64,000 nt of DNA from IMG/VR virus record IMGVR_UViG_3300045988_150343; one strand, written 5' to 3'. This DNA comes from a virus. How positions within the stretch are numbered: the first letter of the stretch is position 1; every line of letters starts with the position of its first letter. This document shows positions 4,589 to 56,736 of this stretch, one piece after another. Under the pieces are notes generated by a model, which saw only the letters and a program-made list of their open reading frames with translations, had not been told where the DNA came from and did no database searches. Made by a program: the position numbers and the translations under genes.

Positions 4589-4606
4589 ATATGCGTTATA
4601 TTTTAT

Positions 4607-5071: not shown

Positions 5072-5078
5072 ATTTGGA

Positions 5079-10521: not shown

Positions 10522-11526
10522 TTATTTTAGCTTTAAAAGATGACCTCTTAGACAATCTTTGAACCAGAGACCAACTTCGCATACTGAACCCTTAGCAAGA
10601 GTATATCTAGCTTTGTTAAGTGTAGCGAGATAGTTATTACGATCGATGAACAGTTTGAAGTCAGCAGGGAATCCCATAATGGCTTTTATATCCTCTATAC
10701 CTAATGGCCACCCATCTGGCCTAAATTGACGGTCAGAAGGACGAACGGTTAAAGGGTATTGGTCTCCCTTAAGCCTATACACTCCGGGAAGGGATTTCAT
10801 CTTAGCTGTCTTGATAGGCCATTTGTATTCATTTTGGAAGTCTCCTCTCCAGAGTTTACAGATCTGTCTGATAGTGAGATTATCCTTCTTAGGAAGTTCT
10901 CGATAGTCGTACATGGCTACCTTTTTCTTCTTAGGGATATTATAATTCTCTGCCTCATTGTAAGGGTGTAGGAGTTCGTATACCTTCTTTACTTGAGCAA
11001 CCTTGAATACTCTCCTGAAAGCTCTCCTCAGGCTTTCAGATTGGTCTTTACGTACTCCTACAATGATAGAACGACATCTTGACTTTTGGGAATTTCCAAA
11101 ATCCATCACTGATACCGTGTGTATAGTGAGAACATAATCCGGGAAATTCTTATCCCAAAAATCCTTATTAAGGATGGATACCAATCTCGGAAGGTTCTCT
11201 ATCAGGAAAACTTTGGGTTTATAAAGATTAATGCTAGAAAGGACTAAGTTAATACTCTTGTTATCTTTTGGGTTTCCCAATTCTTTAGTCTTAGAGAGAC
11301 GCATTATACTACTAGCGCCACAGTCTGGACTCCCTACAATGACATCTGGTTCCCAACTTGGGTCTAATCCCTCTCTGAGAAAAGGCACGTCACCAAAATT
11401 GAACTTCCAGGTGGGGTTCCCAGGATAGTGGAATACCACTCTTGGCTCAACATTAGCAATAATTACCTGATCTCTAAACGGGAGAAGTAAAGCTCCACCT
11501 CCCGCACATACTCCAAGTATCTTCAT
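10522..11526 (-). CDS. DNA (cytosine-5)-methyltransferase-like protein
   Basis: Motif I ILGVCAGGGA, motif IV-like VGSPDCGASS (PDC instead of the canonical PPC/PCQ), motif VI FLIENLPRL, and motif VIII-like NSQKSRCRSII. Confidence 0.6.
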   Translation of the reverse strand: MKILGVCAGGGALLLPFRDQVIIANVEPRVVFHYPGNPTWKFNFGDVPFLREGLDPSWEPDVIVGSPDCGASSIMRLSKTKELGNPKDNKSINLVLSSINLYKPKVFLIENLPRLVSILNKDFWDKNFPDYVLTIHTVSVMDFGNSQKSRCRSIIVGVRKDQSESLRRAFRRVFKVAQVKKVYELLHPYNEAENYNIPKKKKVAMYDYRELPKKDNLTIRQICKLWRGDFQNEYKWPIKTAKMKSLPGVYRLKGDQYPLTVRPSDRQFRPDGWPLGIEDIKAIMGFPADFKLFIDRNNYLATLNKARYTLAKGSVCEVGLWFKDCLRGHLLKLK

Positions 11527-11528
11527 GA

Positions 11529-12188: not shown

Positions 12189-12236
12189 ACCAGCTCTACT
12201 AAAATTTGGATATATAAAACAAAATGCGTATATTTG
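12189..12236 (+). promoter_or_regulatory. Bacteroidota-type promoter with upstream ACCAGCTCT element (drives the plus-strand operon 12270-14296)
   Basis: ACCAGCTCT at 12189-12197, TTTG at 12205-12208, a 20-nt spacer, and TAtaTTTG at 12229-12236. A 31-nt stretch (ACCAGCTCTACTAAAATTTGGATATAT plus 4 flanking nt) is identical to 56687-56717. Confidence 0.7.
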
Positions 12237-19717: not shown

Positions 19718-19766
19718 CAAATATACACATTTATTTTAATATATCCAAATTTGCATCGAGCTGGTA
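19718..19766 (-). promoter_or_regulatory. Early promoter cassette (ACCAGCTC + TTTG + TAtaTTTG)
   Basis: On the minus strand: ACCAGCTC (19765-19758), TTTG (19749-19746), a 20-nt spacer, TAtaTTTG (19725-19718). Confidence 0.7.
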
Positions 19767-30055: not shown

Positions 30056-30307
30056 TTAATTCTCTGCTTTGATGAGCTTCCTTAATTGAGGTCCCTCATT
30101 TCCGAAAGCATTATTCTCATCTCCGAAAGTATCATTATATTTGATAACCTCATCATTATATTTGATAACCTCATCTAGAATAGCTTGAAACTCTATTTGA
30201 GAAGTAATTTCTCGCCTTTCTATTACTTGACTTGGATCATCCTTCAGGCATATTATATAGGTACCTGAGTAGGGATTTGGGGTTTTAACTGTTTGAACGT
30301 TGGGCAT
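30056..30307 (-). CDS. Small hypothetical protein containing a 7-aa tandem duplication
   Basis: An 83-aa ORF. DEVIKYN-DEVIKYN is encoded by a perfect 2 x 21-bp repeat. Confidence 0.5.
   Translation of the reverse strand: MPNVQTVKTPNPYSGTYIICLKDDPSQVIERREITSQIEFQAILDEVIKYNDEVIKYNDTFGDENNAFGNEGPQLRKLIKAEN
30131..30172. repeat. Perfect 21-bp tandem duplication
   Basis: atcattatatttgataacctc at 30131-30151 and again at 30152-30172. Confidence 0.95.
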
Positions 30308-30953
30308 TTTGAGCTCTTTTTAAGTTTTTAATTTCGTTGGTGTACCAGGTTCGAGTATACCCAGGTATTTTCCCTCCGCCTTCAAATTGGTACCAAAGGA
30401 ACCTTTTATCGGGTTTCTGCCCTGGCCTGGAACTCATGTAGAGTTTCTTTGGATAAATATATGTTACCCCTTCAATAGTCTGGCTTGAAGTTATATAAGC
30501 CGGGCAATAAGAGTTACCCTTAAAATCTTTCGGGGTTTCATCTACATCCTTGAACTCTGAGAGAGGTACAAAGCCATAGAATAGGAATTGTTTAGCTATG
30601 CACTTTAACCTATGATTAGATACTTCATAACTAGAGGTTTCTCGGCATACTTCATTGAATTGGTTCCAAAGCTTTTCCCTATATTTTCTAGCAATTCTAA
30701 AGGCCTTATGAAGGGAGATTTGTTTTTTGTTTCGGGCATATAGGAATAATGCCAGATCGGCAACTAACCATCGGAGAGGTCTAATTCGACCATCATGACC
30801 TATAGGTCCATATTCTGGGGTTTCCTTAAATTCTATCCAGAAGTCAGTTTGGCCTTTATCGGAAAGTCTATTATAGACTCTGTAAGATAGCCTTACGCAA
30901 TTGATATCTCTTTTCCTTTCGATATCTAATATCAAGTCCTTCATTGTACCCAT
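30285..30953 (-). CDS. Hypothetical protein
   Basis: A 222-aa ORF. No motif recognised. Confidence 0.55.
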   Translation of the reverse strand: MGTMKDLILDIERKRDINCVRLSYRVYNRLSDKGQTDFWIEFKETPEYGPIGHDGRIRPLRWLVADLALFLYARNKKQISLHKAFRIARKYREKLWNQFNEVCRETSSYEVSNHRLKCIAKQFLFYGFVPLSEFKDVDETPKDFKGNSYCPAYITSSQTIEGVTYIYPKKLYMSSRPGQKPDKRFLWYQFEGGGKIPGYTRTWYTNEIKNLKRAQNAQRSNS

Positions 30954-32334: not shown

Positions 32335-32392
32335 CAAATTTAGATATAATTTTTGAATTGACAAAATTATTTTTCACAATTCAAGAGCTGGT
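32335..32392 (-). promoter_or_regulatory. Early promoter cassette (overlaps the 3' end of 32367..33353)
   Basis: On the minus strand: ACCAGCTCT (32392-32384), TTTG (32365-32362), a 19-nt spacer, TAaaTTTG (32342-32335). Confidence 0.65.
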
Positions 32393-33353
32393 CTGGAGCT
32401 CGTTCTACACCAGTAGAGGGAGTTTTCTTCTTTTTAGGTTTAGGCCTATGCTCCATATAGGCATTATCAAGAGACTTTACACTGAAGTCAATATTGTTCA
32501 CCTCATTGTAGTTAACAGCCCTCTTAATAATATCAATGAAAGTAGGCCAAAAACCTTGACCTAATCGGACATTTGCTGTTTTAGCCCTATATTTAGTGAC
32601 CATAAAACCAAAATCCTCGGCATCTTGTTTTGTTGAAAATACATAGAGATAGAATCTACTCATTTCGTCTATGATTTCTCTTTCTTGACGAATCGGTAAT
32701 AGTGAAAAACCCTTTTCTGGGTATAACAATTCAGATACCAGACATACCCAATATTTGGGTTTTGAGGGTTTTACCTTATAGTAAAATCTTTCTCGGATTT
32801 TCTCTATGAACCAAGGTTTGTTTCTGTCAAGGGTATACTTAATGTATATCTTGTACTTCTTATTTACTCTACGTTTGAAAGCTGAGGGTTGTTGTATCAG
32901 TCTTGGGAGGATACGATAATTATTCCATCGGTCAAACTCCATAATTAAATTCCAAGTGTCCTTATCCCAGGAGTCTCCAGACTCTTTAAGTCTTTTCATA
33001 TTCCGGATGAGGTTCTCTTGGGTCACAGAATTTACTAAAAGAGAGGATTCTCCTACAAAGGCAGATGCTTCAGACCGTTTCATCCTCTTCTCAAGGCAAG
33101 CATACATAAAATCCCGGAAGGTTTCTTCTACTGCTCCATTAGGCCTAAATAGGTCTGAATGAGTTTCATAGAACTCGGTGAACATTTTGAAGAACTTCTG
33201 GGATCTGTCTTTAATCTCTAAGTATTTATAATGAGATATACCCATCATCTCTCCGGCTTCCCAAGAGGATTTCCCTTGGGAAAGTTGAAGGAACAGAGAG
33301 TTCTGTTCCTTCTGAGTTAAGCAATTCCACGCTTTTTCTTGAGCTTCTGTCAT
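32367..33353 (-). CDS. Putative transcription regulator with an N-terminal sigma-70 region-4/LuxR-like HTH
   Basis: LTQKEQNSLFLQLSQGKSSWEAGEMMGISHYKYLEIKDRSQKFF resembles the region-4 pattern L...e..v..l....g.s..EIae.lgiS..tV......a...l. The remaining ~270 aa are unassigned. Confidence 0.45.
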   Translation of the reverse strand: MTEAQEKAWNCLTQKEQNSLFLQLSQGKSSWEAGEMMGISHYKYLEIKDRSQKFFKMFTEFYETHSDLFRPNGAVEETFRDFMYACLEKRMKRSEASAFVGESSLLVNSVTQENLIRNMKRLKESGDSWDKDTWNLIMEFDRWNNYRILPRLIQQPSAFKRRVNKKYKIYIKYTLDRNKPWFIEKIRERFYYKVKPSKPKYWVCLVSELLYPEKGFSLLPIRQEREIIDEMSRFYLYVFSTKQDAEDFGFMVTKYRAKTANVRLGQGFWPTFIDIIKRAVNYNEVNNIDFSVKSLDNAYMEHRPKPKKKKTPSTGVERAPDQLLNCEK

Positions 33354-36297: not shown

Positions 36298-37295
36298 GAC
36301 TCTGTCTTGATTAGAATATCAGTTAATAACTTCTGTTTGTTCTTATCTTTTATGCCTTTAGCCTTCATATATTTTCTAGCTAGCGCTTTCTTAGATAACC
36401 GCTTAGTAATTTTATGGGTGGTTACTTCCTCTTTTCTGGGTTTAGGAGGTATTACAGTATAATAATTACCATCGTCTTTGATTTCCTCCTCGGATTCTAC
36501 ATCTATAAACTTAGGAAAGCCTTTTAATTCTTTAAAAGCCATGGTAAGGTTTCCGGAGGGTTCAGAATATAGTTCCCAATACCCAAGCTTACAGTGCATA
36601 TCGGTTCTACGCTGTTGGATTGGACACCCAACCATATAAACCTTTTTAGATAGTTTCTGGGGTTTATGAATATGGCCGCAGAGAATTAAGTCAAACTTGT
36701 TCAGGAGATTGGGGTTGATAGCATTAGTGGCCTCTACTTCTCTACCATCAGTATCCTTAGCACCGGGGTATGTAGTATGAAGCATAAGTATGTGTTTATA
36801 CTTACTACCTTTACCTATATGATGATTGTCAATCAACTGAGTTAGGTATTCATTTATACCCGCATTGTCATCAATGTATGGTATCCCATGAACTTTTATG
36901 AGAGTAAGGTCTCCCAGTTTTTCTGATTTGAAATTCAAATCCTTCATCCACCTCTTTCTAAGTAAAGTAGCCAAGCTCTTTTGGGGTTTATCTACGGTAT
37001 TCCGGTGTTTTAGAGAATGGTTACCGTCTATATACCACATCTCCCACCTATAGGGTTCAGAATTAGGATTTCCTGGCTCGAACTCTTGCCACATCTCCAA
37101 TAGGTCTGTATCTATGGACTCTGACTTATGGAATAAGTCTCCACAAAATAATGCCGGAACTTTTGGGTACTTATTTGCCAAAAAAGAAAGGACCCGAAAA
37201 GATTCTCGGGTCCTTTTCATATTTTGGTTAAACTTTGTCCAAAGGTTGAGATGTAAGTCCGAGAATACTATAGCTAGTAGTTCTCTTTTTTTCAT
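36291..37295 (-). CDS. sbcD: SbcD/Mre11-like metallophosphoesterase nuclease (T4 gp47 analogue)
   Basis: Calcineurin-like motifs FSDLHL, GDLFH, GNHS and GHIH, in the canonical order. Confidence 0.8.
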   Translation of the reverse strand: MKKRELLAIVFSDLHLNLWTKFNQNMKRTRESFRVLSFLANKYPKVPALFCGDLFHKSESIDTDLLEMWQEFEPGNPNSEPYRWEMWYIDGNHSLKHRNTVDKPQKSLATLLRKRWMKDLNFKSEKLGDLTLIKVHGIPYIDDNAGINEYLTQLIDNHHIGKGSKYKHILMLHTTYPGAKDTDGREVEATNAINPNLLNKFDLILCGHIHKPQKLSKKVYMVGCPIQQRRTDMHCKLGYWELYSEPSGNLTMAFKELKGFPKFIDVESEEEIKDDGNYYTVIPPKPRKEEVTTHKITKRLSKKALARKYMKAKGIKDKNKQKLLTDILIKTESC

Positions 37296-38014
37296 CGTTT
37301 ATTTAGGATATAAGTTAACAATTCTTGTCTGTTCTCCAGATTAACCTCATTAAGGATAAATACTCGGGTAGACCCATAAGGAGTAATCAAATCTCCATAA
37401 GTTACACCATAGTCATAGGCTCGATTAATAAAGAAACCTTTACCTATAGCATTGATTTTACCCTTTTTTCTGAATCCCCATATCTCGAGTATCATGGACA
37501 TGATAGTTGATATTTCCATCTGGAAGTACCTTGATGTGATACGTTTACCATTATCCTCGGTTATCCAACCATTATACATCGGCATATTGAATGGTACCAA
37601 GATAAGGTGAGAACAAGTCTGTGTCAAGCACATCAGACACATATTGAGGAAGTGTTCTACTTCACATTGGGGAAGTTTATCGGCCTGCTTATAAAGGAAG
37701 TAAGCAGCAGAGTCCAGAAAACTTCTGTCAGAAACAAAATTACCTGACTCCTCTATAGTTTTACGGAATAGCTTTTGTCTGAGATTGAGAATCTGGAAGT
37801 CCTCTAAAAATAAAACCTTTGAGTCCCTTGCAAGCATTTCCTTATGAGGAATACTTGCTGTATCGGGTAGTAAATCAGATACTGAACCAGAGATAAACTT
37901 TAGAGGGTTATCCACAGTTCCAATATTCGAACTTACAAAGTTTGCTAAGGTGGTTTTTCCTGTACCACTGGGACCGGCAAACATGATACGTAAATCTTTG
38001 GGGGAATTTTTCAT
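37292..38014 (-). CDS. P-loop nucleotide/nucleoside kinase-like protein
   Basis: Walker A FAGPSGTGKTTL and a dNK-like DRSFLDSAAYF block (compare ERS..sd..vF). Confidence 0.5.
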   Translation of the reverse strand: MKNSPKDLRIMFAGPSGTGKTTLANFVSSNIGTVDNPLKFISGSVSDLLPDTASIPHKEMLARDSKVLFLEDFQILNLRQKLFRKTIEESGNFVSDRSFLDSAAYFLYKQADKLPQCEVEHFLNMCLMCLTQTCSHLILVPFNMPMYNGWITEDNGKRITSRYFQMEISTIMSMILEIWGFRKKGKINAIGKGFFINRAYDYGVTYGDLITPYGSTRVFILNEVNLENRQELLTYILNKR

Positions 38015-42684: not shown

Positions 42685-42938
42685 CCGTGCATAATACTTT
42701 GATAGGGTTTGTTGTGGGTATGGGTTATAAAATAATCACTGGGTATTAAAAATCCACAGATAACGCAGGGTAACCCCTTAGGGGCTAATGTATCACGAAA
42801 ATACTGCAACTTGCTTACAGGGATGTAATTATTATGTTTACATCTCGGGCAGGTTGCAGTAATATTATCAGGTATGTTCTTGGATGAACTGTTGCTCATA
42901 TTGCTTAATCTCTTTACTGAAAACTTTTGGGTATTCAC
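42681..42938 (-). CDS. Small zinc-ribbon protein
   Basis: CPRC...(21 aa)...CVIC is a four-Cys arrangement. The ORF overlaps the 3' end of polA by 32-71 nt, depending on which start is used. Confidence 0.45.
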   Translation of the reverse strand: MNTQKFSVKRLSNMSNSSSKNIPDNITATCPRCKHNNYIPVSKLQYFRDTLAPKGLPCVICGFLIPSDYFITHTHNKPYQSIMHG

Positions 42939-45900
42939 TAATATCTAAACTCTTGTATTTCCTATGCTCTTCCATATATTCCTCTACTGAAAAATTTGGT
43001 TCAAGCATTTTTCTATAGTCATATAGAGGTATGAAAGGTAGTTCCTCTGCCATGGTCCTCCCGATAGAAAAGTCCATAGACATATTAACATCATCTATCT
43101 GAAAGCCAAAGTAATGTTTAGTACTTGGGTTCCTTAATATATTCCAGATAGTGTATACCGTCCATACATTTATGTACTGTGGTAGAGTATACTGATAAAC
43201 AGAGTCATGTACTGTGCAGCATTCCTCCATCCGGGGAAGTTTACCTTGCCTCATTAACCAATAAATGAGTACTGACCCAAAGTTAGTCATATTAGCTGCA
43301 GCTCCTTGACAATTACCGGTTATGATAGTTCGGTATCTTTTATCCTCCCCAATAACTCGAGTAAAGAAAGCTCCAGAAGGTACTGTGGGACACCATACTT
43401 TACCCTCATAGGGTTCTTTAGATAAATTATTCTCCGAGTTATAAGAGTTTCGGGTATTAACCGACTTACGGAAATTAGAGAACCTAACCCCATAACTTGT
43501 TTGGGTAGCCGTTATTGATTCTTGACCATATTTAGTTGGCTCTTTGAAGTAAGAGGTATCACCCTCATGAGATAACTCGAACATTGAGGAAGAGTTATTG
43601 CAGAGTACTGCAATAGCTTGTACAAGTTCAGCTTGGTCTCTTTTATTAGAAGCAAATATACTCCACCCATCTCCTAATCTCAAACTAGTTAACAAGAGCT
43701 CTAACTGATTCTGAGGTAAGGAGGAGATAAACTTCATGTCCATCCTTTTGCCCGGTACAATAGCATCTATCCTTTGTACAAAATCCTTGTCTAGGATAGT
43801 CCATACTTTGATATCACCGTGATGGGCTAAGTGTTCAGAGTACCTTACCCCTAAACTTTGTATCAACTCATCTATGATGTCTACCTTTTCCTTATTTGAT
43901 TTGATACTCTGAGTTATTCGGATATTACCTCTCCTCATCATATGACCATCAGTTAAATACCAACCTATAAAAGATATCCAAGCATCAGGGTATATTTTAA
44001 CATTAAGATTGTTATGTTCTGCTCTAATGGGTATAGCTAAACTCCTTCTAGAATTTAGTAACTCCTCAGAAGTTTTAATCCTTGTAGAAGTTAAGTCACT
44101 AATTCTTTTAGTAGAACTAACCACCCATCTATGGTCTGGAGTAGATAGTACGTCCAAATGTTTAGTCTTAAACCTTACCAATTCGCCCTTGTAATCAAAA
44201 ATATTTACCGAGATTACTGGCTGCCACTCAGATTTACCTGTTTCTCTATTGAAGGCAAGTATTTCATCTCCACGTTCTAGCTCCTCATAATTAACCCAAC
44301 CCTTAGTCTTACTTAATGCTTGAGATGTTGGAGTTAAACAGGGGAAATTAAGGCCAAGGCGTATGGCATAAGCCTGCTGTTCATGATCATCGCCCCATAT
44401 CTCAGGAAGTCTTCTCTTTGTTCCGAACAACTGTCGATAATAACCGTGCTTACGAAGGAATCTCTCTTGTTTATCCTTAAATTTCTTGATTTTAGGATGT
44501 TCTTCAAAAAACTCATCCATAATCTGTTTAGCCTCATCCTTAGTAACTACAAGCCCCTCTTTTGGGTCTGATAGTTTCTCAGCAAGTAGGCCAGGACCAA
44601 TACCATAAATAAGACCAAACGCAATCTGTTTAGCCTGTTTACGTCTACCTTTCCATAATTTATAATCCGGATGTTGTTCATCATTATAAGCAGCAATCGC
44701 TTCAGCGGGATCAGCATGATACTTATTAATAGCAATGGCAAGGTGAGGATCAACCCCTTCTCTAAATGCCTTAAGATAGGTCTCATCTCCTGAAAGATGA
44801 GCCATCATTCTTAACTCAGCCTGAGAATAGTCATATGCCAAGTAAAGTCTTCCTTTTGGAGCTATAAGTTGCTTTTTAATATTGGGGTCTACAGAGGTTT
44901 TAGGTATCTGTTGTAGATTGGGTTCTGCAGATGAATATCTATTAGAGTCGGTACCTATAATATTTATTCGCCCATGAAGACGAGAGTCAGATTGTACTTT
45001 CTCGTGCCAACCCAATATATAGGTCTTATACATCTTCTCTAAACCTCTAAGTTCAAGGAGTTTATCCAGAAAGATAGCTTTAGGAGAATTTGAGTTTTCA
45101 ACAGTTAGCCTTAACTTAATCAGGGTTTCCTCATCTGTACTTATCCCCCCAGAATCCGTGTTTTTTATAACAGGGAACTTAAACCCTTTTGGGTGAGTAA
45201 ACATAAGTAGAGGGAGAGTTACATTGGAATTAAGGTTGGGAGGATCTAGTAATGCTAACTCAGTCTTGGTCGTAAATACTCCAGCCCGTATATTTGCTAT
45301 CTTCTGCTCCCTCAAGGCAATCTTTCTAGCATTCTTTGGGTCACTGTAGTCCATTTCATCCAATTCATCCTGAATCTTTTGAAGATAAGTATCTATCTTC
45401 TCTTGAGCTAATAGTTTGGAGAACTTAACTACTCGGGGGAGTGACATAACAGTTTCCCTAGCAGCATCTATCTTTTCCTTGTAGGAGTGTAGAAGTTCCT
45501 CATTGAACTGGGTATCTATGTATAAACCACATTTTTCAAGGGAAGTTAGTACTCTTGAGCCAGTAGCAAATAGGTTACGGTAAGTATTATACATACCTAT
45601 ATCCATAAGCTTTTTCTCGAAGAACATACAAAGTCTGAGAGTATAGTCGGTATCCTGACAACCATAAAAACAAAGCGGTACGAGTTCCTTTCTATCCCAG
45701 GGTATCTTGTCGAATTGTTCTGCCTTTTCATAATCTCCCATACTTGGGAGGTATCTTCTAACCATTTCCTTTAGACCGTGAGGTTTCTCCTCGTTCAGCA
45801 AGTATTTCATTATCATGCCGTCTAATAGAGCTCCTCGATAAAATATCTTAAATAGATGTTCCCATATCTGACCATCAAACTTAAAGTTCCAAGCACATTT

Positions 45901-46203
45901 AGTGATATTGGGGTTTTCTATGAGTTGATGACCTATCCATTTGAGAGCTTTAAGCCTTTGTTTTCGGGGAAATTGTATACCCTTTGAAGCATAATACTCA
46001 TCAGCTTGGAAATGGTCAAGAGGTATAGCACAACCAAACCCAGGCATAAAGGATACCGATAGGATAGTTACCCTAAAGGTATCTTTATATATAGGCTCTG
46101 CATTCGTCTCAAAGTCGTTGCAGCAATAACCCATTTTCTTACAGGCTTTTATAAGCTGTTTAACCTCTTTTAGTGAGCTTAATATTTTATATCTTGTTTC
46201 CAT
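42868..46203 (-). CDS. polA: Family A DNA polymerase with 3'-5' exonuclease domain, interrupted by an intein
   Basis: Exo motifs CNDFETNA, NFKFDGQIW and YGCQDTDYTLRL. Pol motif A YDYSQAELRMMAHLSGD, motif B RRKQAKQIAFGLIYGIG, motif C TVHDSVY. The conserved N-F-P-x-Q-G-x-A-A block is split as LNFP / intein / CQGAAANM. Confidence 0.95.
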   Translation of the reverse strand: METRYKILSSLKEVKQLIKACKKMGYCCNDFETNAEPIYKDTFRVTILSVSFMPGFGCAIPLDHFQADEYYASKGIQFPRKQRLKALKWIGHQLIENPNITKCAWNFKFDGQIWEHLFKIFYRGALLDGMIMKYLLNEEKPHGLKEMVRRYLPSMGDYEKAEQFDKIPWDRKELVPLCFYGCQDTDYTLRLCMFFEKKLMDIGMYNTYRNLFATGSRVLTSLEKCGLYIDTQFNEELLHSYKEKIDAARETVMSLPRVVKFSKLLAQEKIDTYLQKIQDELDEMDYSDPKNARKIALREQKIANIRAGVFTTKTELALLDPPNLNSNVTLPLLMFTHPKGFKFPVIKNTDSGGISTDEETLIKLRLTVENSNSPKAIFLDKLLELRGLEKMYKTYILGWHEKVQSDSRLHGRINIIGTDSNRYSSAEPNLQQIPKTSVDPNIKKQLIAPKGRLYLAYDYSQAELRMMAHLSGDETYLKAFREGVDPHLAIAINKYHADPAEAIAAYNDEQHPDYKLWKGRRKQAKQIAFGLIYGIGPGLLAEKLSDPKEGLVVTKDEAKQIMDEFFEEHPKIKKFKDKQERFLRKHGYYRQLFGTKRRLPEIWGDDHEQQAYAIRLGLNFPCLTPTSQALSKTKGWVNYEELERGDEILAFNRETGKSEWQPVISVNIFDYKGELVRFKTKHLDVLSTPDHRWVVSSTKRISDLTSTRIKTSEELLNSRRSLAIPIRAEHNNLNVKIYPDAWISFIGWYLTDGHMMRRGNIRITQSIKSNKEKVDIIDELIQSLGVRYSEHLAHHGDIKVWTILDKDFVQRIDAIVPGKRMDMKFISSLPQNQLELLLTSLRLGDGWSIFASNKRDQAELVQAIAVLCNNSSSMFELSHEGDTSYFKEPTKYGQESITATQTSYGVRFSNFRKSVNTRNSYNSENNLSKEPYEGKVWCPTVPSGAFFTRVIGEDKRYRTIITGNCQGAAANMTNFGSVLIYWLMRQGKLPRMEECCTVHDSVYQYTLPQYINVWTVYTIWNILRNPSTKHYFGFQIDDVNMSMDFSIGRTMAEELPFIPLYDYRKMLEPNFSVEEYMEEHRKYKSLDISEYPKVFSKEIKQYEQQFIQEHT
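43312..44340 (-). mobile_element. 343-aa intein with a LAGLIDADG homing-endonuclease domain, inside polA
   Basis: Cys1 codon at 44340-44338 (LNFP|CLTPTSQAL). Block B TPDHRW. Two LAGLIDADG-type motifs FIGWYLTDGHMM and LLTSLRLGDGWS. C-terminal ...RTIITGN|CQGAAANM, with the Asn codon at 43314-43312 and a +1 Cys. In frame, 1029 nt. Confidence 0.85.
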
Positions 46204-46277: not shown

Positions 46278-47123
46278 TTAAATTTTATTCTTGAGTACGT
46301 CATCTATGTTGGATTTAAGGAATACCCAATCCTTTTTATAGGCATGAAGAGAATCAATGGTGTGATAGAGATAACCCACTTCTACCGCATCTTCATCAGA
46401 TTTTTTGTATCTATTTATGAGTTCAACCATATATTCCATGAGTTTCCAGGCCAAGTATACATCATTACCAAAATGCTGAACAAAGTCAGAACTTCTTTGA
46501 TGATAACAGATGTTCAGTTTACCATTACGGAGAAGGAAGTCGAAGTACATAGAGCAGGGAATGCGATGTGCACCATCCATGAAGTCTATGTCCCTTTCAA
46601 TGGTATAGCCATTAGGACATCCGTGACCTTCCTCGTCGTGATTGTAACGAGTATAGGTTCCATAGATTGGGAGAATTGCTTTGCGAGTATCGGGGTCTTC
46701 TGCCAGTTGGATAGCTATTGCCTCGATGAGTTTGTGGATACCCCCCTTATAGGTTACTGCCTGATTGATGCGTTCACCATAGGAGTAGTCGAAACGGAGG
46801 AGACCCTCTCCATCCTGAACCAGGAATTCCTCCCACATTTCAGGACGAAGTTTATATGCAGAACCAGGGTTTATTTCGCCTTTGATGCGTTCTGCAAATT
46901 CAGCCTCAGCCCAGGCTTTATCTTTGGTGAATGCGAACAGATACTGAACTTCATCGAGAGAAGTTAAGCAGTACTGCTCACATATTAATTCTTTAGTTAC
47001 AAAGTCATCATTACCTTCAATGTTCTTGTTTTGATAGGTCTTGGGTTTAACTTCTTTGCCCATTTCCCAGAGGTCTCTGCCCATTTCAGACATGAGCTCT
47101 TCGCAGTTTTCGTATATTCTCAT
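46278..47123 (-). CDS. ThyA-fold pyrimidine dNMP hydroxymethylase/thymidylate-synthase family protein (dCMP-hydroxymethylase-like specificity residue)
   Basis: DPDTRKAILPIY (compare T4 gp42 NPDSRRGIMIY). Catalytic Cys in IPCSMYF, followed exactly 20 residues later by HQRSSD. There is an Asp at +11 from that Arg (HFGND), the position that is Asn177 in E. coli ThyA and Asp179 in T4 gp42. Confidence 0.75.
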   Translation of the reverse strand: MRIYENCEELMSEMGRDLWEMGKEVKPKTYQNKNIEGNDDFVTKELICEQYCLTSLDEVQYLFAFTKDKAWAEAEFAERIKGEINPGSAYKLRPEMWEEFLVQDGEGLLRFDYSYGERINQAVTYKGGIHKLIEAIAIQLAEDPDTRKAILPIYGTYTRYNHDEEGHGCPNGYTIERDIDFMDGAHRIPCSMYFDFLLRNGKLNICYHQRSSDFVQHFGNDVYLAWKLMEYMVELINRYKKSDEDAVEVGYLYHTIDSLHAYKKDWVFLKSNIDDVLKNKI

Positions 47124-47127
47124 TGTT

Positions 47128-47469
47128 CTAAGAATTTAATTTGAGATATTGTTGATTAATTATGGGATATAATAGTTTAGCTGCTTCTATAGGTGTAACC
47201 GGCTTAAATCGGGGTTCATTTGAATAGGGTTTATTTTCTAAGAACATACCCATAGGCCTAGCCCAAGTTTGAGTTGGATGGAAGTCCTCTAACTCGGGTA
47301 CATATTCCTTGTACAGGTAAAGAGTTTCTCCAGTCTCTGAATGTATAGCTTCTCCTACCTTAGCTACAAGCTTACCCTTAAAGTGTACATATAAGTTACC
47401 CCAATCTTTAAGCCACTTTTCAATTTGATAGAGGGGTACTTCGTCTAACTTATTTACGAACTCCATCAT
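47128..47469 (-). CDS. DUF1653-like protein
   Basis: LYVHFKGKLVAKVGEAIHSETGETLYLYKEY...TWARPMGMFLE fits DUF1653 (YrHyKG..Y.v...a.hsEt.e..VvY......w.RP..mF.e). Confidence 0.6.
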   Translation of the reverse strand: MMEFVNKLDEVPLYQIEKWLKDWGNLYVHFKGKLVAKVGEAIHSETGETLYLYKEYVPELEDFHPTQTWARPMGMFLENKPYSNEPRFKPVTPIEAAKLLYPIINQQYLKLNS

Positions 47470-48382
47470 TAGCCTCCTTTCTTAGTTTTGCTAAATACTT
47501 TTGCTTGTACTTTCTCCTCTGAGAATAAGATATGCACTCTTCTGGGTATTCTATATCTTCATCCTCGATAGTTAAGTCTTTTGCCAGTAGAGGTTTATAA
47601 GGATAATTATCTCTTCGGATAACCTTATAAGATCTGAAAAATACCTTGAAACGAGAAAATTCGCTTTCAGGACCATTCATGAATTTCTTGAATATCTCCA
47701 TTACCCTTTGATACCAAGGGTTACTCTTATCCATACCTTTCATAACCTTTTTAATGGATTTATAGGTATTATACATGAGCAATGTTTCAACATTGCCATA
47801 CATCTGACAAGCAAAGATATTAATCTGAACTGGCTGGTCGGGCCCATATACGTATTCAGCCATCCTTTGAACAAGTAGAAGGTCAAAAGCCAGCCTCTTA
47901 GTAACCTCGGATGCTCTTAAGTGTATGGTGATTACTGGGGTATCCTGCTGGAACCTTTTAGAGAAAGTAGCCGTTAGTAGGCATTGCTTACCATTATCAT
48001 GGGTGTTATGAAATACGTAGGGTAAATTATAATTCTGGTTATACTTCTGCTTCATACAACGGATTCGGCTTCTAAGTAAGTCTAACTTATTGAAGTCGAT
48101 ATAATTGTTAAGCAGAGTAGTCCACTTACTATCCGTGTAATTAAAGTACTTACCGAAATCAAATTCGGGGTCCATCCATGCCCTCTTTATTCTAACGAAG
48201 ATGTTATAAGATACAGATACACCTGAATTAGCCGTACCTCCCTGATCGAATAAAGAAGGGTCGAGACGAATAAATGCCTCATTTATACCTTCCCAAGCCT
48301 GTTGAGAAGTATGGAACTCGAGATGATGGCATGTTTCATCCGTGTTCATCTCGAGCCCCAAGGGTTTATTCCATCCTGCCAT
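47450..48382 (-). CDS. Second, highly diverged ThyA/HMase-fold candidate
   Basis: GKQCLLTATFSKR...ITIHLRASEVTKRLAFDLLLVQRM. A Cys lies 22 residues before an R-A-S-E block, and an Asp lies at +11 (AFD, compare PFN in ThyA and RND in gp42). The similarity is weak and was judged by eye only. Confidence 0.4.
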   Translation of the reverse strand: MAGWNKPLGLEMNTDETCHHLEFHTSQQAWEGINEAFIRLDPSLFDQGGTANSGVSVSYNIFVRIKRAWMDPEFDFGKYFNYTDSKWTTLLNNYIDFNKLDLLRSRIRCMKQKYNQNYNLPYVFHNTHDNGKQCLLTATFSKRFQQDTPVITIHLRASEVTKRLAFDLLLVQRMAEYVYGPDQPVQINIFACQMYGNVETLLMYNTYKSIKKVMKGMDKSNPWYQRVMEIFKKFMNGPESEFSRFKVFFRSYKVIRRDNYPYKPLLAKDLTIEDEDIEYPEECISYSQRRKYKQKYLAKLRKEANDGVRK

Positions 48383-49257
48383 TAGTAGTTAGATTTTTGG
48401 CGAAAGCGATTAACCCGGTTCTTCTTAAAGAAGAGATAATAGAGATTTTCAGGTGTAATCCCCATTATTACGTGATAACCAAATAGTTTAGCTATGCCCT
48501 GGAAAAGGTGTTCAAAGTATGGAGCTTCATCAGAAAGTTCTCCACTCTGTTTCCAAGGTTTATTTTTTAGAAAGTTTCTACCAACTCCCAGGTGATACTG
48601 TATCTGCCATAGGTAGCTCATTTCTCGGTGATGAAAAAGTGAGGATAGGTTATGAAATCCAGGGCAATAGGATTTTACCTTAAGATAATCCTCGGCATTC
48701 TCAAAACGGTCTATGGATAACAGTTCATATTGAAGACTCCCGGTATCTTCTAGTATAACAGAATCAAACGAATTAAGTAACTTAGTTCCCGTTATCATAA
48801 GTAACTCTAGAAGTGGACGACTTTCACATTCTGAGTCTTCTGGTAATTGGCTTAATGCCCATTCCCTCAAATCCTGTGGAGTAATTCCGGCATATATGAG
48901 AAGCTCAAGGAAGAATGCCGAGGCATCTGCCTGTTCCTCATTGGAGTTCTGTATATGGTTAAGGAGCATCTTATACTCCTTATTAGATAAGAGGTCTAAG
49001 TTCCAACCGACTTTCTCCATCATTTCTACGGCATAATGGGTAGATTCATAACCCTCTGCCAATTCTTCTACTACTCGAGAAGCAAAATCCTTGAGAACTA
49101 CCTGAGACTTTTTAGAGTTGATGTTAATAGGGTATTGAGGTAGCCCCTCAATACGGATATAGCCTTCCATTAACTCTTTCTGCAGGTCGAACATTTTCTC
49201 GAGATAAGCTCCACCCTCTACTTTGGGTGGTTCCTCTTTGATGTTTCGAATATCCAT
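48382..49257 (-). CDS. All-alpha (dimeric dUTPase/T4 gp56 dCTPase-like) dNTP pyrophosphatase
   Basis: Metal-binding helices RVVEELAEGYES and EEQADASAFFLELLIYAGI. The C-terminus GITPENLYYLFFKKNRVNRFRQKSNY closely parallels the remembered T4 gp56 end GMNAEEIFKLYYLKNKENFARQDRGY. Confidence 0.6.
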   Translation of the reverse strand: MDIRNIKEEPPKVEGGAYLEKMFDLQKELMEGYIRIEGLPQYPININSKKSQVVLKDFASRVVEELAEGYESTHYAVEMMEKVGWNLDLLSNKEYKMLLNHIQNSNEEQADASAFFLELLIYAGITPQDLREWALSQLPEDSECESRPLLELLMITGTKLLNSFDSVILEDTGSLQYELLSIDRFENAEDYLKVKSYCPGFHNLSSLFHHREMSYLWQIQYHLGVGRNFLKNKPWKQSGELSDEAPYFEHLFQGIAKLFGYHVIMGITPENLYYLFFKKNRVNRFRQKSNY

Positions 49258-49296
49258 ATAAAATCTGTTTATTTGAATGTTAAGTTAGAATAGTCC

Positions 49297-49959
49297 TTAG
49301 ATCGAGTAATGGGCATCACGTAATGCGAGTTCGTCTTCTAAGGAAAGTTTCACACCGTCGCTTGAACCAAAACCTTTATCTCCTCGGGTCCCCCAGTTCT
49401 TAGCCATATCTTCGTATAACTGTTTAGGTATCTCCTCTGGTTCGGTATCAAAAATGGGTACATGAATAAACTGTACTATCTTTTCTCCGGGTTTCAGAGT
49501 TACGTTAGAATTACTAGTATTTATGAGAGAGATGTGTACTTCTCCAGTATAAGGAGAGTCTACTATCTCAGCTCCAAAAATAAGACCCTTTTTAGTGCAT
49601 ACTCCTGACTTATTAGCTGCCATAAACATAGATTGCTTGGGTTCGAGTAATACCCGAATACCAGAGGGGATAAGGATACGAGCATGAGGTCTGATTGTTA
49701 CAGCATCAATGGGCTGATCATATAAGTATAGAGGATCATTTTGGCCTGAATCATGGACCCAACCATGGGCCCAGGTATCTTTTCCCACGGTAAATTCTAA
49801 CCCATAAGTATTAAGTACCTGTTCAGCTTGTTTTTCTAAAAGCTGGTTGACTGTTAAATCTTCGGGGAAGAAGAAGTCAAGTCCAGCATCCCCCGAATTT
49901 GCCCGGGCTAAAGGTTTTACCTTTCGTACTCGGGTGTAACGAATGGATGGTCTGTTCAT
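49297..49959 (-). CDS. dut: Trimeric dUTPase
   Basis: All five motifs in order: SGDAGLDF, RILIPSGIRV, KSGV..KGLIFGAEIVDSPYTGEV, GEKIVQFI and RGDKGFGSS. Confidence 0.85.
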   Translation of the reverse strand: MNRPSIRYTRVRKVKPLARANSGDAGLDFFFPEDLTVNQLLEKQAEQVLNTYGLEFTVGKDTWAHGWVHDSGQNDPLYLYDQPIDAVTIRPHARILIPSGIRVLLEPKQSMFMAANKSGVCTKKGLIFGAEIVDSPYTGEVHISLINTSNSNVTLKPGEKIVQFIHVPIFDTEPEEIPKQLYEDMAKNWGTRGDKGFGSSDGVKLSLEDELALRDAHYSI

Positions 49960-50351
49960 TGTTTTAATTCTTTATATATTTTGCGTACGATTTTCTTAGG
50001 CACTTCAAACTTCTCAGAGGTTTTAATTATAATCTCCTTACGTTCTTTACCTTTCCGGATTAATCCTCTCATGTACTTCTTCATCCCTGCTACATCTTCC
50101 AGAATATCCAGATCCTTGTATTGGTTTTTCTCTTCAAGTTCCTTGCGAGTAACCTTCAGCATCTGAGACATTTTGATAGCACATAATTCGGAGTCTCCAC
50201 AGAGTTTACATTCCTTAGTGGAAAGGTCGTATGCTTTACCAAAGCAGGGGTCGGAATTAATATCCCCGATTTCCTTCAGGTTAAGCGGAGTAAGAGGATC
50301 ATGTTTAGTAAGTATTTCCTCTGAAGTTTTCTTCTTAAGTTTCTTAGCCAT
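49956..50351 (-). CDS. Hypothetical Cys-containing basic protein
   Basis: The ORF track start is 50375. I prefer the ATG at 50351 (MAKKLKKK). It contains CFGK...CKLCGDSELC. Confidence 0.5.
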   Translation of the reverse strand: MAKKLKKKTSEEILTKHDPLTPLNLKEIGDINSDPCFGKAYDLSTKECKLCGDSELCAIKMSQMLKVTRKELEEKNQYKDLDILEDVAGMKKYMRGLIRKGKERKEIIIKTSEKFEVPKKIVRKIYKELKQ

Positions 50352-50384
50352 GATAATTGTGTTTAATAGGTACAACCCAAAATC

Positions 50385-56688: not shown

Positions 56689-56736
56689 ACCAGCTCTACT
56701 AAAATTTGGATATATTAAAATAATGTCTTAAATTTG
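56689..56736 (+). promoter_or_regulatory. Bacteroidota-type promoter with ACCAGCTCT element (drives 56777..57433)
   Basis: ACCAGCTCT at 56689-56697, TTTG at 56705-56708, a 20-nt spacer, and TAaaTTTG at 56729-56736. Near-identical to the promoter at 12189..12236. Confidence 0.7.

Follow-up and report, generated by a model that had tools for sequence, protein, structure and literature searches.

The window, a stretch of 64,000 nucleotides of viral DNA (IMG/VR record IMGVR_UViG_3300045988_150343), belongs to a gut Bacteroidota phage. Here, the following genes surround the locus of interest:

42868..46203, minus strand: family A DNA polymerase with a 3'-5' exonuclease domain, directly downstream of ORF1
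46278..47123, minus strand: ORF1, 281 aa, thymidylate synthase (TS)-superfamily enzyme of a distinct clade (Pfam PF00303, 31.8 bits)
47128..47469, minus strand: ORF2, 113 aa, DUF1653 (Pfam PF07866, 43.7 bits)
47450..48382, minus strand: ORF3, 310 aa, TS-fold paralogue of an unannotated family (AlphaFold2, Foldseek, hhalign)
48382..49257, minus strand: ORF4, 291 aa, all-alpha NTP pyrophosphatase of the dUTPase_2 / T4 gp56 type (PHROG 12184)
49297..49959, minus strand: ORF5, 220 aa, trimeric dUTPase (Pfam PF00692, 56.4 bits)
49956..50375, minus strand: ORF6, 139 aa, Cys-rich (PHROG 13400, unknown function)

An ORF check of the window confirmed that the five consecutive genes at 46278-49959 (ORF1 to ORF5) are all real. 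All are encoded on the minus strand as a single compact operon, which ends at the family A polymerase. Base 48382 is common to the stop codon of ORF4 and the start codon of ORF3, and the start of ORF5 is overlapped by 4 nt by ORF6, the first conserved gene of the operon, which is kept in the same position in 77 of 80 IMG/VR relatives. The polymerase, already recognized as family A in the preliminary description, scores 191.6 bits against Pfam DNA_pol_A and 55.6 bits against DNA_pol_A_exo1 and is split by about 343 aa of inserted, intein-like sequence. The DUF1653 gene is indeed present between the two TS-like genes, but it is a lineage-specific insert and not the module member it had been taken for. 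It is absent in all 80 relatives, where ORF3 is directly followed by ORF1, and in MT121964 its slot is occupied by a second ORF3 paralogue.

ORF1 scores above the Pfam Thymidylat_synt cut-off of 24.3 bits and matches PHROG 160 'thymidylate synthase' at 7.7e-22. Residue coordinates determined by script place Cys190 within RIPCSMYF, Arg210 exactly 20 residues further within Q-R-S-S-D and Asp221 at +11 from Arg210 within HFGND, exactly the catalytic Cys, Q-R-S-x-D block and Asp described before. In the HMMER alignment ORF1 QRSSDFVQHFGND stands against T4 gp42 MRSNDVVFGFRND, and MAFFT aligns Asp221 with E. coli Asn177. Alignment with T4 gp42 and E. coli ThyA, which had been proposed as a check, shows that the Cys is retained and that Asp, not Asn, is present at the position of E. 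coli Asn177 and T4 Asp179. The key residues are Cys190 (C146 in E. coli numbering), Arg210 (R166), Asp213 (D169) and Asp221 (N177 position), as well as Ser212, together with Arg187, His217, Ser191 and Arg147/Lys148 at the positions of L143, G173, H147 and R126/R127. They are invariant among 36 aligned homologues, including the Asp at the Asn177 position, which is also invariant in three cultured-phage orthologues. The clade signature is Arg143, His173 and Asp177 (E. coli numbering). All nucleotide-binding and catalytic residues of TS are kept except the specificity position, occupied by Asp, and the C-terminal TS lid is lacking, since only 19 residues follow Tyr262 compared with 55 in E. coli ThyA. 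ORF1 is present in 79 of the 80 relatives. In databases, all members of its clade are annotated as 'thymidylate synthase'. An Asp at position 177 redirects enzymes of the TS family to dCMP, and no other residue is as strongly associated with viral contigs carrying modified cytosine (PMC8670742; PMC13326640). Literature cited there reports that N177D makes TS dCMP-directed.

ORF3 has no match in Pfam or NCBIfam. Its AlphaFold2 model (pLDDT 86.5, pTM 0.85) confirmed the previous assignment of 47450..48382 as a second, very diverged copy of the ThyA fold. In the PDB, Foldseek returned TS-fold matches only, namely TS, dCMP-/CMP-hydroxymethylase and dCMP-hydroxylase (MilA, 5e-5; T4 dCH, 7e-5; phage HY126 dCMP hydroxylase 9iqu, TM 0.53). 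Leaving aside uncharacterized ORF3-family proteins, almost all significant matches in BFVD were TS or dCMP-hydroxymethylase as well. Profile-profile comparison with the TS clade by hhalign (E 2.3e-5, probability 76%) sets Cys134, Arg156, Glu159 and Asp167 of ORF3 in register with Cys190, Arg210, Asp213 and Asp221 of ORF1. Within the family, which comprises 167 clusters at 50% identity, these four residues are 98–100% conserved in 83 representative sequences (<50% identical), and Arg163 is likewise nearly invariant. In place of the Arg126/Arg127 phosphate loop, ORF3 has YNQNYN. Its C-terminal helix is basic.

ORF4 matches PHROG 12184 'nucleotide pyrophosphohydrolase' at 5e-23, and several of its homologues carry PF08761. 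Of the Pfam searches suggested beforehand, Thymidylat_synt, dUTPase and DUF1653 hit their genes with the scores listed above, whereas dUTPase_2 reached 18.4 bits with ORF4, under the 22.9-bit cut-off, and ORF3 gave no hit. Nevertheless, the description of ORF4 as an all-alpha dNTPase with a gp56-like C-terminus holds: the model is all-alpha (pLDDT 92.8) and the final 41 residues are 29% identical to the C-terminus of T4 gp56 (pairwise E 0.002). Its invariant residues include the acidic motifs E64-E65-x-x-E68 and E107-E108-x-x-D111. BLASTP found Muddy gp48, the CPAS-15 'dUTPase' and Serbin gp52 at 1e-9 to 1e-14, while Foldseek and a PDB profile search returned nothing. ORF5 was correctly called a classical trimeric dUTPase. 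It scores 68 bits against NCBIfam dut, below the equivalog cut-off, and is kept in 77 of the 80 relatives. Motifs I–V, including the C-terminal RGDKGFGSS arm, were recognized by eye in the translation; motif I (AGLD at residue 25), the sole one confirmed by script, is followed by an insertion of about 50 aa.

In every record inspected, a gene of the ORF1 clade adjoins one of the ORF3 family, and the two are neighbors in more than 100 cultured phages. Carriers of the pair are gut phages, Muddy as well as Gordonia, Clostridium perfringens, Serratia and Pseudomonas phages. The TS clade of ORF1 is represented by 118 records of the phage collection and the ORF3 family by 85 + 18 + 3, to which are added the 10 Clostridium records of that clade, where CPAS-15 alone was examined for an ORF3 gene. 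With these included, the taxon counts match almost one-to-one. From kinase through all-alpha NTP pyrophosphatase, ORF3-family gene and ORF1-clade gene to PolA, the same gene order is found in Clostridium phage CPAS-15, Mycobacterium phage Muddy and Serratia phage Serbin. In Serbin, gp51 and gp50 have one base in common. Muddy gp45 and Serbin gp49 are dCMP-family deaminases adjoining the TS gene. The constant adjacency and the near-equal taxon counts of the clade defined by Arg143, His173 and Asp177 and of the ORF3 family are new here. The second TS-like gene is thus not an 'extra' paralogue, as had been assumed, but the constant neighbor of this TS clade. Muddy is a widely used therapeutic phage, and the literature found on Muddy, thymidylate synthase and DNA modification together was limited to a general review.

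Two further genes of the window have to be considered:

10522..11526, minus strand: DNA C5-cytosine methyltransferase, 334 aa, outside the module (Pfam PF00145, 49.1 bits)
37292..38014, minus strand: P-loop NTPase, 240 aa, candidate dNMP kinase (PHROG 2107 and 761, Pfam AAA_28)

The P-loop protein carries a Walker A motif and scores 29.3 bits against AAA_28. Its matches to PHROG 2107 and 761 'thymidylate kinase' are weak (7e-7 and 3e-6), and those to the Muddy and Serbin kinases and to PDB chains are confined to the Walker A region. Of the P-loop kinase proposed earlier, the P-loop stands, whereas a role as dNMP kinase is weakly suggested. The methyltransferase is 46% identical to a protein of MT121964 annotated 'DNA cytosine methyltransferase' and appears intact, with the motifs PDC, ENL and QxxRxR visible. 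GATC and CATG are strongly avoided (observed/expected 0.40 and 0.60, respectively), a pattern resembling that of phages exposed to restriction. Neither the methyltransferase nor this avoidance appeared in the preliminary description. A DNA C5-methyltransferase requires an unsubstituted C5 in DNA. Because the phage keeps this enzyme and avoids GATC and CATG, a complete replacement of cytosine is disfavored. In agreement with the earlier statement, no glycosyltransferase was detected in about 65 ORFs scanned, where about 10 proteins above 200 aa are unannotated. Since canonical TS, ThyX and Zn-deaminase are absent from the window, the module falls short of a full dTMP pathway.

T4 dCMP hydroxymethylase cannot work without Asp145, which lies three residues ahead of its Cys, and the D145N mutant is inactive (PMC6400193). 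In ORF1 this position is the invariant Arg187, and Tyr113 replaces the Ser (T4 Ser94) that precedes the catalytic Tyr by two residues. The earlier proposal of 'probably 5-hmC' is therefore not established. ORF1 also departs from the methyl signature (Leu143; here Arg187), and the flavin-type 5-hoC signature Asn169 is absent because ORF1 retains Asp169 (Asp213). As the hydroxymethyl, 5-hoC and methyl signatures all fail, no published rule predicts the product of the ORF1/ORF3 module.

The operon probably represents a dCMP-directed C5-modification module, altering deoxycytidine nucleotides ahead of DNA replication in the manner of T4. With a probability of roughly 0.55, a virulent Bacteroidota myophage uses it to modify deoxycytidylate at C5 before replication, which would follow the T4 scheme with a different enzyme pair. 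The logic of T4 gp42/gp56/gp1 noted previously is recovered: a dCMP-type TS homologue directly upstream of the DNA polymerase stands together with a gp56-like pyrophosphatase, a trimeric dUTPase and a possible dNMP kinase.

Folds, conserved residues, gene order and co-occurrence are shown directly, and from them we infer substrates, cofactor, product, order of steps and incorporation into DNA as follows. The gp56-like ORF4 would convert dCTP to dCMP and ORF5 dUTP to dUMP. ORF1 would bind dCMP via Asp221, Cys190 would attack C6, and the one-carbon unit of methylene-tetrahydrofolate would be placed on C5, with Asp213 retained as folate ligand. Since ORF1 lacks the TS lid and Leu143 and has Arg187 and His217 beside C5, the exocyclic methylene would probably not be reduced to methyl but react with water, giving 5-hydroxymethyl-dCMP, or with another nucleophile. 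ORF3, with its own Cys/Arg/Glu/Asp set and without the Arg-pair loop, may be the other half of an ORF1 heterodimer or may act on the nucleotide in a second step. The triphosphate would be made by a kinase, for which the P-loop protein is a candidate, together with the host NDP kinase, and the adjacent family A polymerase would be the presumed consumer incorporating the modified dNTP. Several observations speak against this T4-like reading: the departure from the T4 hydroxymethylase signature, the C5-methyltransferase, the GATC/CATG avoidance, the weak kinase assignment, the only predicted preference of ORF4 for dCTP versus dUTP, and the Muddy/Serbin deaminase, which fits a route to uracil or thymine derivatives as well as cytosine modification.

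A rather unlikely alternative is a 5-methyl-dCMP pathway of the Xp12 type, in which ORF1 methylates dCMP and the product enters DNA as 5mC or, in Muddy and Serbin, is deaminated to thymidylate, that is, a dC-to-5mC/dT shunt without a hydroxymethylase. Xp12, PaMx74 and MetaGPA modified-cytosine contigs combine an Asp177 TS homologue with a dCMP-family deaminase, a MazG/PRA-PH pyrophosphatase and PolA (bioRxiv 10.1101/2024.12.05.627091), and a deaminase of this kind lies beside the TS gene in Muddy (gp45) and in Serbin (gp49). In addition, ORF1 keeps the Asp169 needed for TS-like folate geometry, and annotators of a Gordonia CT-cluster phage call these genes 'thymine synthesis' (PMC10353413). 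However, methyl products correlate with a bulky hydrophobic residue at position 143, where ORF1 has Arg, the lid used by TS for hydride transfer is missing, and the window has no deaminase. Furthermore, no Xanthomonas (Xp12-type) enzyme was found at E <= 1e-5 in the clade query, the conserved ORF3 partner would be left unexplained, and the phage's own C5-methyltransferase would be superfluous if 5mC replaced cytosine in full.

It is similarly doubtful that ORF3 is no second enzyme of the nucleotide pathway, being instead a silent subunit of an ORF1 heterodimer with a single working site or acting on polymeric DNA. Obligate dimerization is a feature of TS-fold enzymes, whose active sites each take Arg126' and Arg127' from the partner. 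In line with this, ORF3 lacks the Arg-pair loop while ORF1 keeps Arg147/Lys148, the adjacent genes sometimes overlap and their taxon counts match, and some C-terminal tails of the family are K/R-rich or GRP-containing (net charge of at least +4 in 28 of 84). On the contrary, the near-complete conservation of Cys134, Arg156, Glu159 and Asp167 is unusual for a silent subunit, no ORF3-TS fusion was found among 150 representative sequences, and the Muddy, Serbin and CPAS-15 members have no basic tails. Ordinary nucleotide supply, with ORF1 a plain thymidylate synthase (dUMP to dTMP) and ORF3 unrelated, would fit the database annotation of the clade and the common phage dTTP supply set of dUTPase, TS and thymidylate kinase, but is very improbable given the invariant, dCMP-directing Asp, the alteration of His147, Leu143, Gly173 and the C-terminal tail of true ThyA, the NCBIfam ThyA equivalog scores far under the cut-offs (46 vs 174.55; 18 vs 327) and the strict linkage of the TS-fold ORF3 to ORF1.

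Among known systems, the CMP hydroxymethylase MilA of the mildiomycin pathway is the top Foldseek match of the ORF3 model and has the TS fold, a cytosine-nucleotide substrate and Asp at position 177. Identity is 11% with TM-scores of just 0.37–0.39, and MilA, a bacterial secondary-metabolism enzyme, differs by Asp at position 143 and by keeping the Arg pair. The 5-methyl-dCMP modules of Xp12, PaMx74 and MetaGPA (TS homologue, 5mdCTP deaminase, PRA-PH, PolA) present the same domain set beside a family A polymerase, in Muddy and Serbin even with the deaminase that the window lacks. Their TS homologues belong to a different clade without cross-match at E <= 1e-5, and unlike these modules ORF1 has a non-hydrophobic position 143 and an ORF3-family partner.

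The flavin-dependent 5-hydroxy-dCMP synthases (RB69 gp48, DLP3 gp80, HY126 AfhB; PDB 9iqu/9iqc) give the best sequence match of ORF1 to a solved structure (E 3e-4), the highest score among reference proteins against the ORF1-family profile (51 bits; ThyA and gp42 about 30 bits) and the best target-normalized TM-score for the ORF3 model (0.53). They share Asp177 and the short C-terminus with ORF1. In contrast, ORF1 and ORF3 have Asp213 and Glu159, respectively, in place of the diagnostic Asn169 of these synthases, and Arg and Gly in place of the Glu that the synthases have at position 143; no arabinose or glycosyl-transfer genes were detected here.

Compared with T4, ORF1 is only 24% identical to gp42-like proteins, with Asp145, Ser94 and Gly173 replaced by Arg187, Tyr113 and His217. 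The phage has a separate trimeric dUTPase and no detected glycosyltransferase, and gp42 has no second TS-fold neighbor whereas ORF1 is always accompanied by one. Nevertheless, T4 gp42 shares with ORF1 the TS fold, the catalytic Cys, Asp at the pyrimidine-specificity position, the retained Asp169 and a short C-terminus without the TS lid, and both pathways have a gp56-like all-alpha NTP pyrophosphatase, probably a dNMP kinase, and replication genes nearby.

A distinct clade of thymidylate synthase (TS) homologues and an unannotated family with the TS fold form a constant gene pair in gut, actinobacterial, clostridial and proteobacterial phages. Here, the pair lies in an operon next to the gene of a family A DNA polymerase (PolA), the operon end being located 74 nt upstream of PolA:

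46278-50375 (-), proposed modification operon, a run of six genes with short gaps or overlaps
46278-47123 (-), ORF1, TS homologue; its clade is called the TS clade
47128-47469 (-), ORF2, DUF1653 gene
47450-48382 (-), ORF3, predicted TS-fold protein of 310 aa
48382-49257 (-), ORF4, candidate all-alpha pyrophosphatase
49297-49959 (-), ORF5, trimeric dUTPase
49956-50375 (-), ORF6

The preliminary description had interpreted ORF1 to ORF5 as a T4-like 5-hydroxymethylcytosine (5hmC) module containing two hydroxymethylase-fold paralogues. The observation itself was confirmed. The reading frames are present at these places, and ORF1, ORF2, ORF4 and ORF5 have Pfam or PHROG matches. Of the interpretation, a T4-like, nucleotide-level and cytosine-directed module with two TS-fold proteins could be retained, whereas the 5hmC product and the inclusion of DUF1653 could not.

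The gene order in 80 IMG/VR relatives is ORF6, dUTPase, ORF4, ORF3, ORF1 and PolA, and ORF1 is found in 79 of them, the lone exception being a truncated contig. ORF2, which matches DUF1653 in Pfam with 43.7 bits and has no match in a PDB sequence-profile search, is absent from all 80 relatives. Therefore, this gene is a lineage-specific insertion and not a member of the module. In the more distant 75.5-kb gut phage MT121964 its slot is occupied by a second ORF3 paralogue. There, two tandem ORF3-family genes (10033-10896 and 11012-11752) are followed by an ORF1-type gene without any DUF1653 gene, resulting in three consecutive TS-fold genes in all.

An equivalent arrangement is kept in the unrelated cultured phages CPAS-15 (Clostridium), Muddy (Mycobacterium) and Serbin (Serratia), with the order kinase, all-alpha pyrophosphatase, an un- or misannotated gene of ~250–300 aa, 'thymidylate synthase' and DNA polymerase I, the last two being separated by zero or few small genes. 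The ORF3-family profile matches the third gene in CPAS-15 (gp21, 2e-43), Serbin (gp51, 2e-15) and Muddy (gp47, 1.7e-9). Throughout the phages searched by tblastn, the taxon counts of the TS clade and the ORF3 family match, and in most of the 24 matches listed the ORF3-family match lies under or beside an annotated thymidylate synthase gene.

Taxon counts of the two families (tblastn)
Gordonia: TS clade 70, ORF3 family 68
Mycobacterium: TS clade 9, ORF3 family 9
Streptomyces: TS clade 4, ORF3 family 4
Microbacterium: TS clade 2, ORF3 family 2
Serratia: TS clade 6, ORF3 family 6
Pseudomonas: TS clade 5, ORF3 family 5
Brevundimonas: TS clade 2, ORF3 family 2

Gene fusions between ORF3 and TS, sought as a sign of physical coupling, were not found among 150 representative sequences; the long members of the family carry low-complexity basic tails. 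Some records label the family differently: gp21 of CPAS-15 (4208-4957), an ORF3-family TS-fold protein, is annotated as 'colanic acid biosynthesis glycosyltransferase WcaC', and an ORF3 homologue of Yersinia phage P744 (15411-16178) as 'pyrimidine hmase synthase'.

ORF1 belongs to the TS superfamily as defined by a profile match, the catalytic Cys and the nucleotide-phosphate ligands R166/S167 and R126. It scores 31.8 bits against Pfam Thymidylat_synt (PF00303, gathering cut-off 24.3 bits), and Cys190, Arg210, Ser212 and Arg147 are invariant. The residue spacing described before is exact, with Cys190 within RIPCSMYF, Arg210 at +20 in QRSSD and Asp221 at Arg +11 in HFGND. Using HMMER, this block was aligned to the T4 dCMP hydroxymethylase gp42 (MRSNDVVFGFRND) as well as to PDB 9iqu/9iqc, for which the Foldseek label is the dCMP hydroxylase AfhB of phage HY126. 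A MAFFT alignment with T4 gp42 and E. coli ThyA bears out the earlier residue assignment: the catalytic Cys is kept, and Asp221 lies in the column of E. coli Asn177, aligned with T4 Asp179.

Three positions (E. coli numbering) allow such enzymes to be classified. At position 177, Asn confers dUMP and Asp dCMP specificity; at position 143, methyl products are correlated with bulky hydrophobic residues and hydroxymethyl products with Asp/Glu; at position 169, Asn (D169N) is the mark of flavin-dependent 5-hydroxy-dCMP synthases (PMC13326640; PMC8670742). Furthermore, the substrate water is activated in the T4 enzyme by Asp145 at Cys -3, a D145N variant being dead, and the signature of hydroxymethylases also includes a Ser at -2 from the catalytic Tyr (PMC6400193). 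The residues common to ORF1 and the CPAS-15, Muddy and Serbin orthologues are Asp177, Asp169, Arg143, His173 and Ser or Thr at 147. Asp177 and Asp169 occur as in dCMP-directed, folate-type enzymes, and from the pattern as a whole, binding of dCMP together with a pterin cofactor is predicted for the clade.

A hydroxymethylase of the gp42 type, as proposed in the preliminary description, shares the Asp at the position of Asn177. Its Asp/Glu at Cys -3 is replaced by Arg187, which does not vary among 36 homologues or in the orthologues of CPAS-15, Muddy and Serbin, and its Ser/Thr at Tyr -2 (T4 Ser94-x-Tyr96) is lacking in the Tyr113-Ser114-Tyr115 of ORF1, a loop aligned less certainly than the region around the Cys. 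By these two signatures the 5hmC call is not supported. A 5-hydroxy-dCMP synthase as in RB69 gp48 or AfhB is approached by overall similarity, as the ORF1-family profile scores 51 bits against the 5-hoC synthase of phage JK42, identical to 9iqu across the aligned region, versus ~30 bits for ThyA or gp42; the diagnostic Asn169 is Asp213 in ORF1 and Glu159 (98% conserved) in ORF3. For a dCMP methyltransferase of the Xp12 type, Asp221 is present and position 143 is Arg187, which speaks against this assignment as judged by signature; the ORF1-clade query gave no Xanthomonas match at E <= 1e-5. A canonical ThyA would have Asn177, His147 and Leu143 and a lid of ~50 residues at the C-terminus. Against it speak Asp221, Ser191 and Arg187, scores far under the cut-offs of the NCBIfam ThyA equivalog models and a chain ending 19 residues past Tyr262, the segment after the HxY motif comprising 19 residues in ORF1 and its orthologues, 55 in E. 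coli ThyA and 28 in T4 gp42.

Three cytosine products are known, and by its residue signature the ORF1 clade fails the diagnostic of every one. Because the lid is missing and polar residues lie beside C5, we favour a non-reductive outcome, in which the methylene would be captured by water or another nucleophile. Here, His217 would be a plausible substitute for the general base.

The second, very diverged ThyA-like gene claimed previously is real, although only ORF1 is recovered by the Pfam Thymidylat_synt search and ORF3 has no match there. Neither Pfam nor NCBIfam nor the PDB sequences gave a match for ORF3, and ten distant members of its family, searched against Pfam for a gradation into PF00303, gave no matches either. 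The AlphaFold2 model (pLDDT 86.5, pTM 0.85, built on 35 homologues) retrieves only the TS fold from the PDB using Foldseek, with a probability of 1.0 to MilA, T4 dCMP hydroxymethylase and AfhB. The matches are the CMP hydroxymethylase MilA (5e-5), T4 dCMP hydroxymethylase (7e-5), HY126 dCMP hydroxylase (TM 0.53), followed by ordinary thymidylate synthases. Within BFVD, uncharacterised family members were found, including Pseudomonas phage PMBT14 at TM 0.6–0.7, and the remaining significant matches are, with few exceptions, TS or gp42 proteins of viruses.

On sequence level, hhalign of broad ORF3 and TS-clade profiles gave an E-value of 2.3e-5 (probability 76%), significance being reached only with these broader profiles, since narrow alignments gave E 0.11. 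The register pairs Gly131 with Arg187, Cys134 with Cys190, Arg156 with Arg210, Ser158 with Ser212, Glu159 with Asp213, Arg163 with His217 and Asp167 with Asp221, and each profile ranks the other gene second-best in the window. The model and the profiles indicate that ORF3 has the TS fold and the active-site register of TS and dCMP hydroxymethylase. Among 83 full-length representatives with a mutual identity <50%, Cys134, Arg156, Glu159, Arg163, Asp167, Tyr82, Lys86, Trp87, Tyr94 and Phe124 are 96–100% conserved. In TS, the DPDSRR loop gives Arg126'/Arg127' to the phosphate site of the partner subunit. ORF3 lacks this loop; the equivalent loop is Y114-N-Q-N-Y-N119, and no basic residue is conserved at this phosphate-loop position in the wider family.

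Residues 286-309 of ORF3 (window 47456-47527) form a Lys/Arg-rich terminal helix. Long basic tails are present in some family members (P0127, P0165, P0168, P0183), a few of them with GRP (AT-hook-like) motifs; tails with a net charge of at least +4 occur in 28 of 84 members, and those of Muddy, Serbin and CPAS-15 have no basic tails. As such tails are present in part of the family only (28/84), they were set aside as evidence for DNA binding.

ORF3 has 452 close homologues, all from gut-virome contigs, many of ~85 kb. When 1.84 billion cluster representatives were searched exhaustively with the profile, 167 family clusters were obtained. Single 90%-identity clusters of ORF3 comprise up to 7,862 member sequences. 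The gut Bacteroidota phages carrying the ORF1/ORF3 pair are a very abundant human-gut group. In 185,579 bacterial genomes, scanned in search of a host, the ORF3 family is essentially absent; the only matches were a phage contig binned in error and a fragment of 573 bp. The 82-kb contig CALFLM010000093.1, which contains the module (ORF3 identity 67%) and was deposited as part of a metagenome-assembled genome named 'Romboutsia sp.', almost certainly represents the genome of a phage that was mis-binned.

The pyrophosphatase common with the modules of the cultured phages is ORF4 (BLASTP 1e-9 to 1e-14) and not the trimeric dUTPase. ORF4 matches the PHROG 'nucleotide pyrophosphohydrolase' (5e-23) and reaches 18.4 bits against Pfam dUTPase_2 (PF08761), under the cut-off of 22.9 bits; several homologues (43–57% identity) carry PF08761. 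Its EExxE and EExxD acidic motifs are invariant, and its final 41 residues can be aligned to the C-terminal end of the T4 dCTPase-dUTPase gp56. A PDB sequence-profile search gave no matches, and Foldseek with the confident model found generic helical bundles only (E > 0.2), so that the assignment is drawn from sequence alone. ORF4 is a candidate all-alpha pyrophosphatase of the dUTPase_2/gp56 type.

ORF5 is a trimeric dUTPase (PF00692, 56.4 bits, cut-off 22 bits), whose motifs I–V including the C-terminal arm were recognised by eye in the translated sequence, motif I alone being confirmed by script. The P-loop protein at 37292-38014, placed beside the T4 dNMP kinase gp1 in the preliminary description, matches PHROG thymidylate-kinase families (7e-7 and 3e-6), reaches 14 bits against the NCBIfam dTMP kinase (cut-off 83.25) and matches the Muddy and Serbin kinases within Walker A only. 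This weakly suggests a kinase-like protein.

Whether cytosine could be replaced in bulk is informed by another gene and by the composition of the window:

10522-11526 (-), DNA C5-cytosine methyltransferase (PF00145, 49 bits), adjoining a muramidase gene

Its PDC (a variant catalytic motif), ENL and QxxRxR motifs are visible, and it is kept in MT121964 (46% identity); a PDB sequence-profile search gave no match. A DNA C5-methyltransferase requires an unsubstituted C5 in DNA, and its presence would be hard to reconcile with a bulk C5 substitution of cytosine. Furthermore, GATC (observed/expected 0.40, z = -9) and CATG (0.60, z = -5.7) are strongly depleted in the whole window. The methyltransferase and this avoidance argue against a complete, protective replacement of cytosine; a partial replacement is compatible. 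The CpG odds ratio of the window is 0.62, and CGCG (4 copies) and GCGC (17 copies) are nearly missing.

A canonical TS, ThyX or Zn-deaminase was not found in the window, and therefore the module is not a self-contained dTMP pathway here. Muddy (gp45) and Serbin encode a dCMP-family deaminase between the TS gene and PolA; gp45 of Muddy (4618-5160), annotated as 'hypothetical protein', matches PF00383 with 66 bits. Phages with 5-methylcytosine (5mC) have been described with a deaminase likewise between the TS gene and PolA (bioRxiv 10.1101/2024.12.05.627091). A role of ORF3 as a TS-fold deaminase standing in for the Zn enzyme was rejected, since Zn deaminases co-occur in Muddy and Serbin. Between 14736 and 34054 (-), a long run of small genes and several larger ones encoding proteins of 200–330 aa (22229-23140, 26554-27420, 30285-30953 and 32367-33353) lack matches in Pfam and PHROG. 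Each of these could hide a downstream DNA-modifying transferase.

With respect to the host, the Bacteroidota promoter motif TTTG-N17-23-TAnnTTTG occurs in 12 copies compared to 2.6 expected, a number reached in 0 of 100 shuffles. Most copies precede genes and lie on the coding strand, and many share the longer consensus TTTGGATATAT-AAAATAA-N-TATATTTG. None of the 12 is directly upstream of the modification operon.

12205-12236 (+), Bacteroidota-type promoter
19718-19749 (-), Bacteroidota-type promoter
56705-56736 (+), Bacteroidota-type promoter
8086-9576 (-), large terminase of the T4 gp17 type

The closest named relatives of the terminase are from Flavobacterium myophages (38% identity), while 79% identity is reached by a sequence derived from rat. 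That the phage has a contractile tail is indicated by its baseplate J and tail-collar domains. The module and the first 25 kb were compared with 50,697 phage records by megablast without a usable match, so this is a phage without a close named relative; an assignment to the Flandersviridae is not claimed, as no supporting literature text was found. PolA (42868-46203 (-)) has 1111 aa, with the Pfam DNA_pol_A match stopping at residue 621. Residues ~656-957 have no counterpart in the PolA of MT121964, and near-identical contigs encode a PolA of 768 aa. The insertion (~43333-44340, ~343 aa) starts with Cys, ends with Asn-Cys and contains LAGLIDADG-like motifs, which points to an intein-like element.

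The product of the ORF1/ORF3 pair is not readable from known signatures. We consider that the ORF1 clade (Arg143, His173, Asp177) and the ORF3 family may be a previously unrecognised two-component TS-fold system, which would install a cytosine modification other than 5mC, 5hmC or 5hoC in phages of gut Bacteroidota, Gordonia, Clostridium perfringens, Serratia and Pseudomonas as well as in Muddy, and give this reading roughly one chance in four. Such a system could be a heterodimer, or a two-step relay, the second Cys enzyme acting on the first product by re-opening its C5. In the literature consulted on DNA modification by TS homologues of phages, no description of the pair was found, and nothing relevant on modification or restriction was found for Muddy, Serbin, PMBT14, P744 or C. 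perfringens phages.

Which defences (restriction, CRISPR, glycosylase) a phage can evade depends on the DNA modifications made by TS homologues, and these modifications have also supplied enzymes for epigenetic sequencing. The pair is common and present in growable phages, and Muddy is a therapeutic mycobacteriophage. The ORF3 family is unannotated in Pfam, NCBIfam and PHROGs, and the ORF1 clade is not classified by the published residue rules on positions 177 (substrate), 143 (methyl or hydroxymethyl) and 169 (hydroxyl). Either possible outcome would be of use: a novel derivative of cytosine or thymine made by a new TS-family reaction, or a correction for >100 genomes annotated as 'thymidylate synthase + hypothetical protein'.
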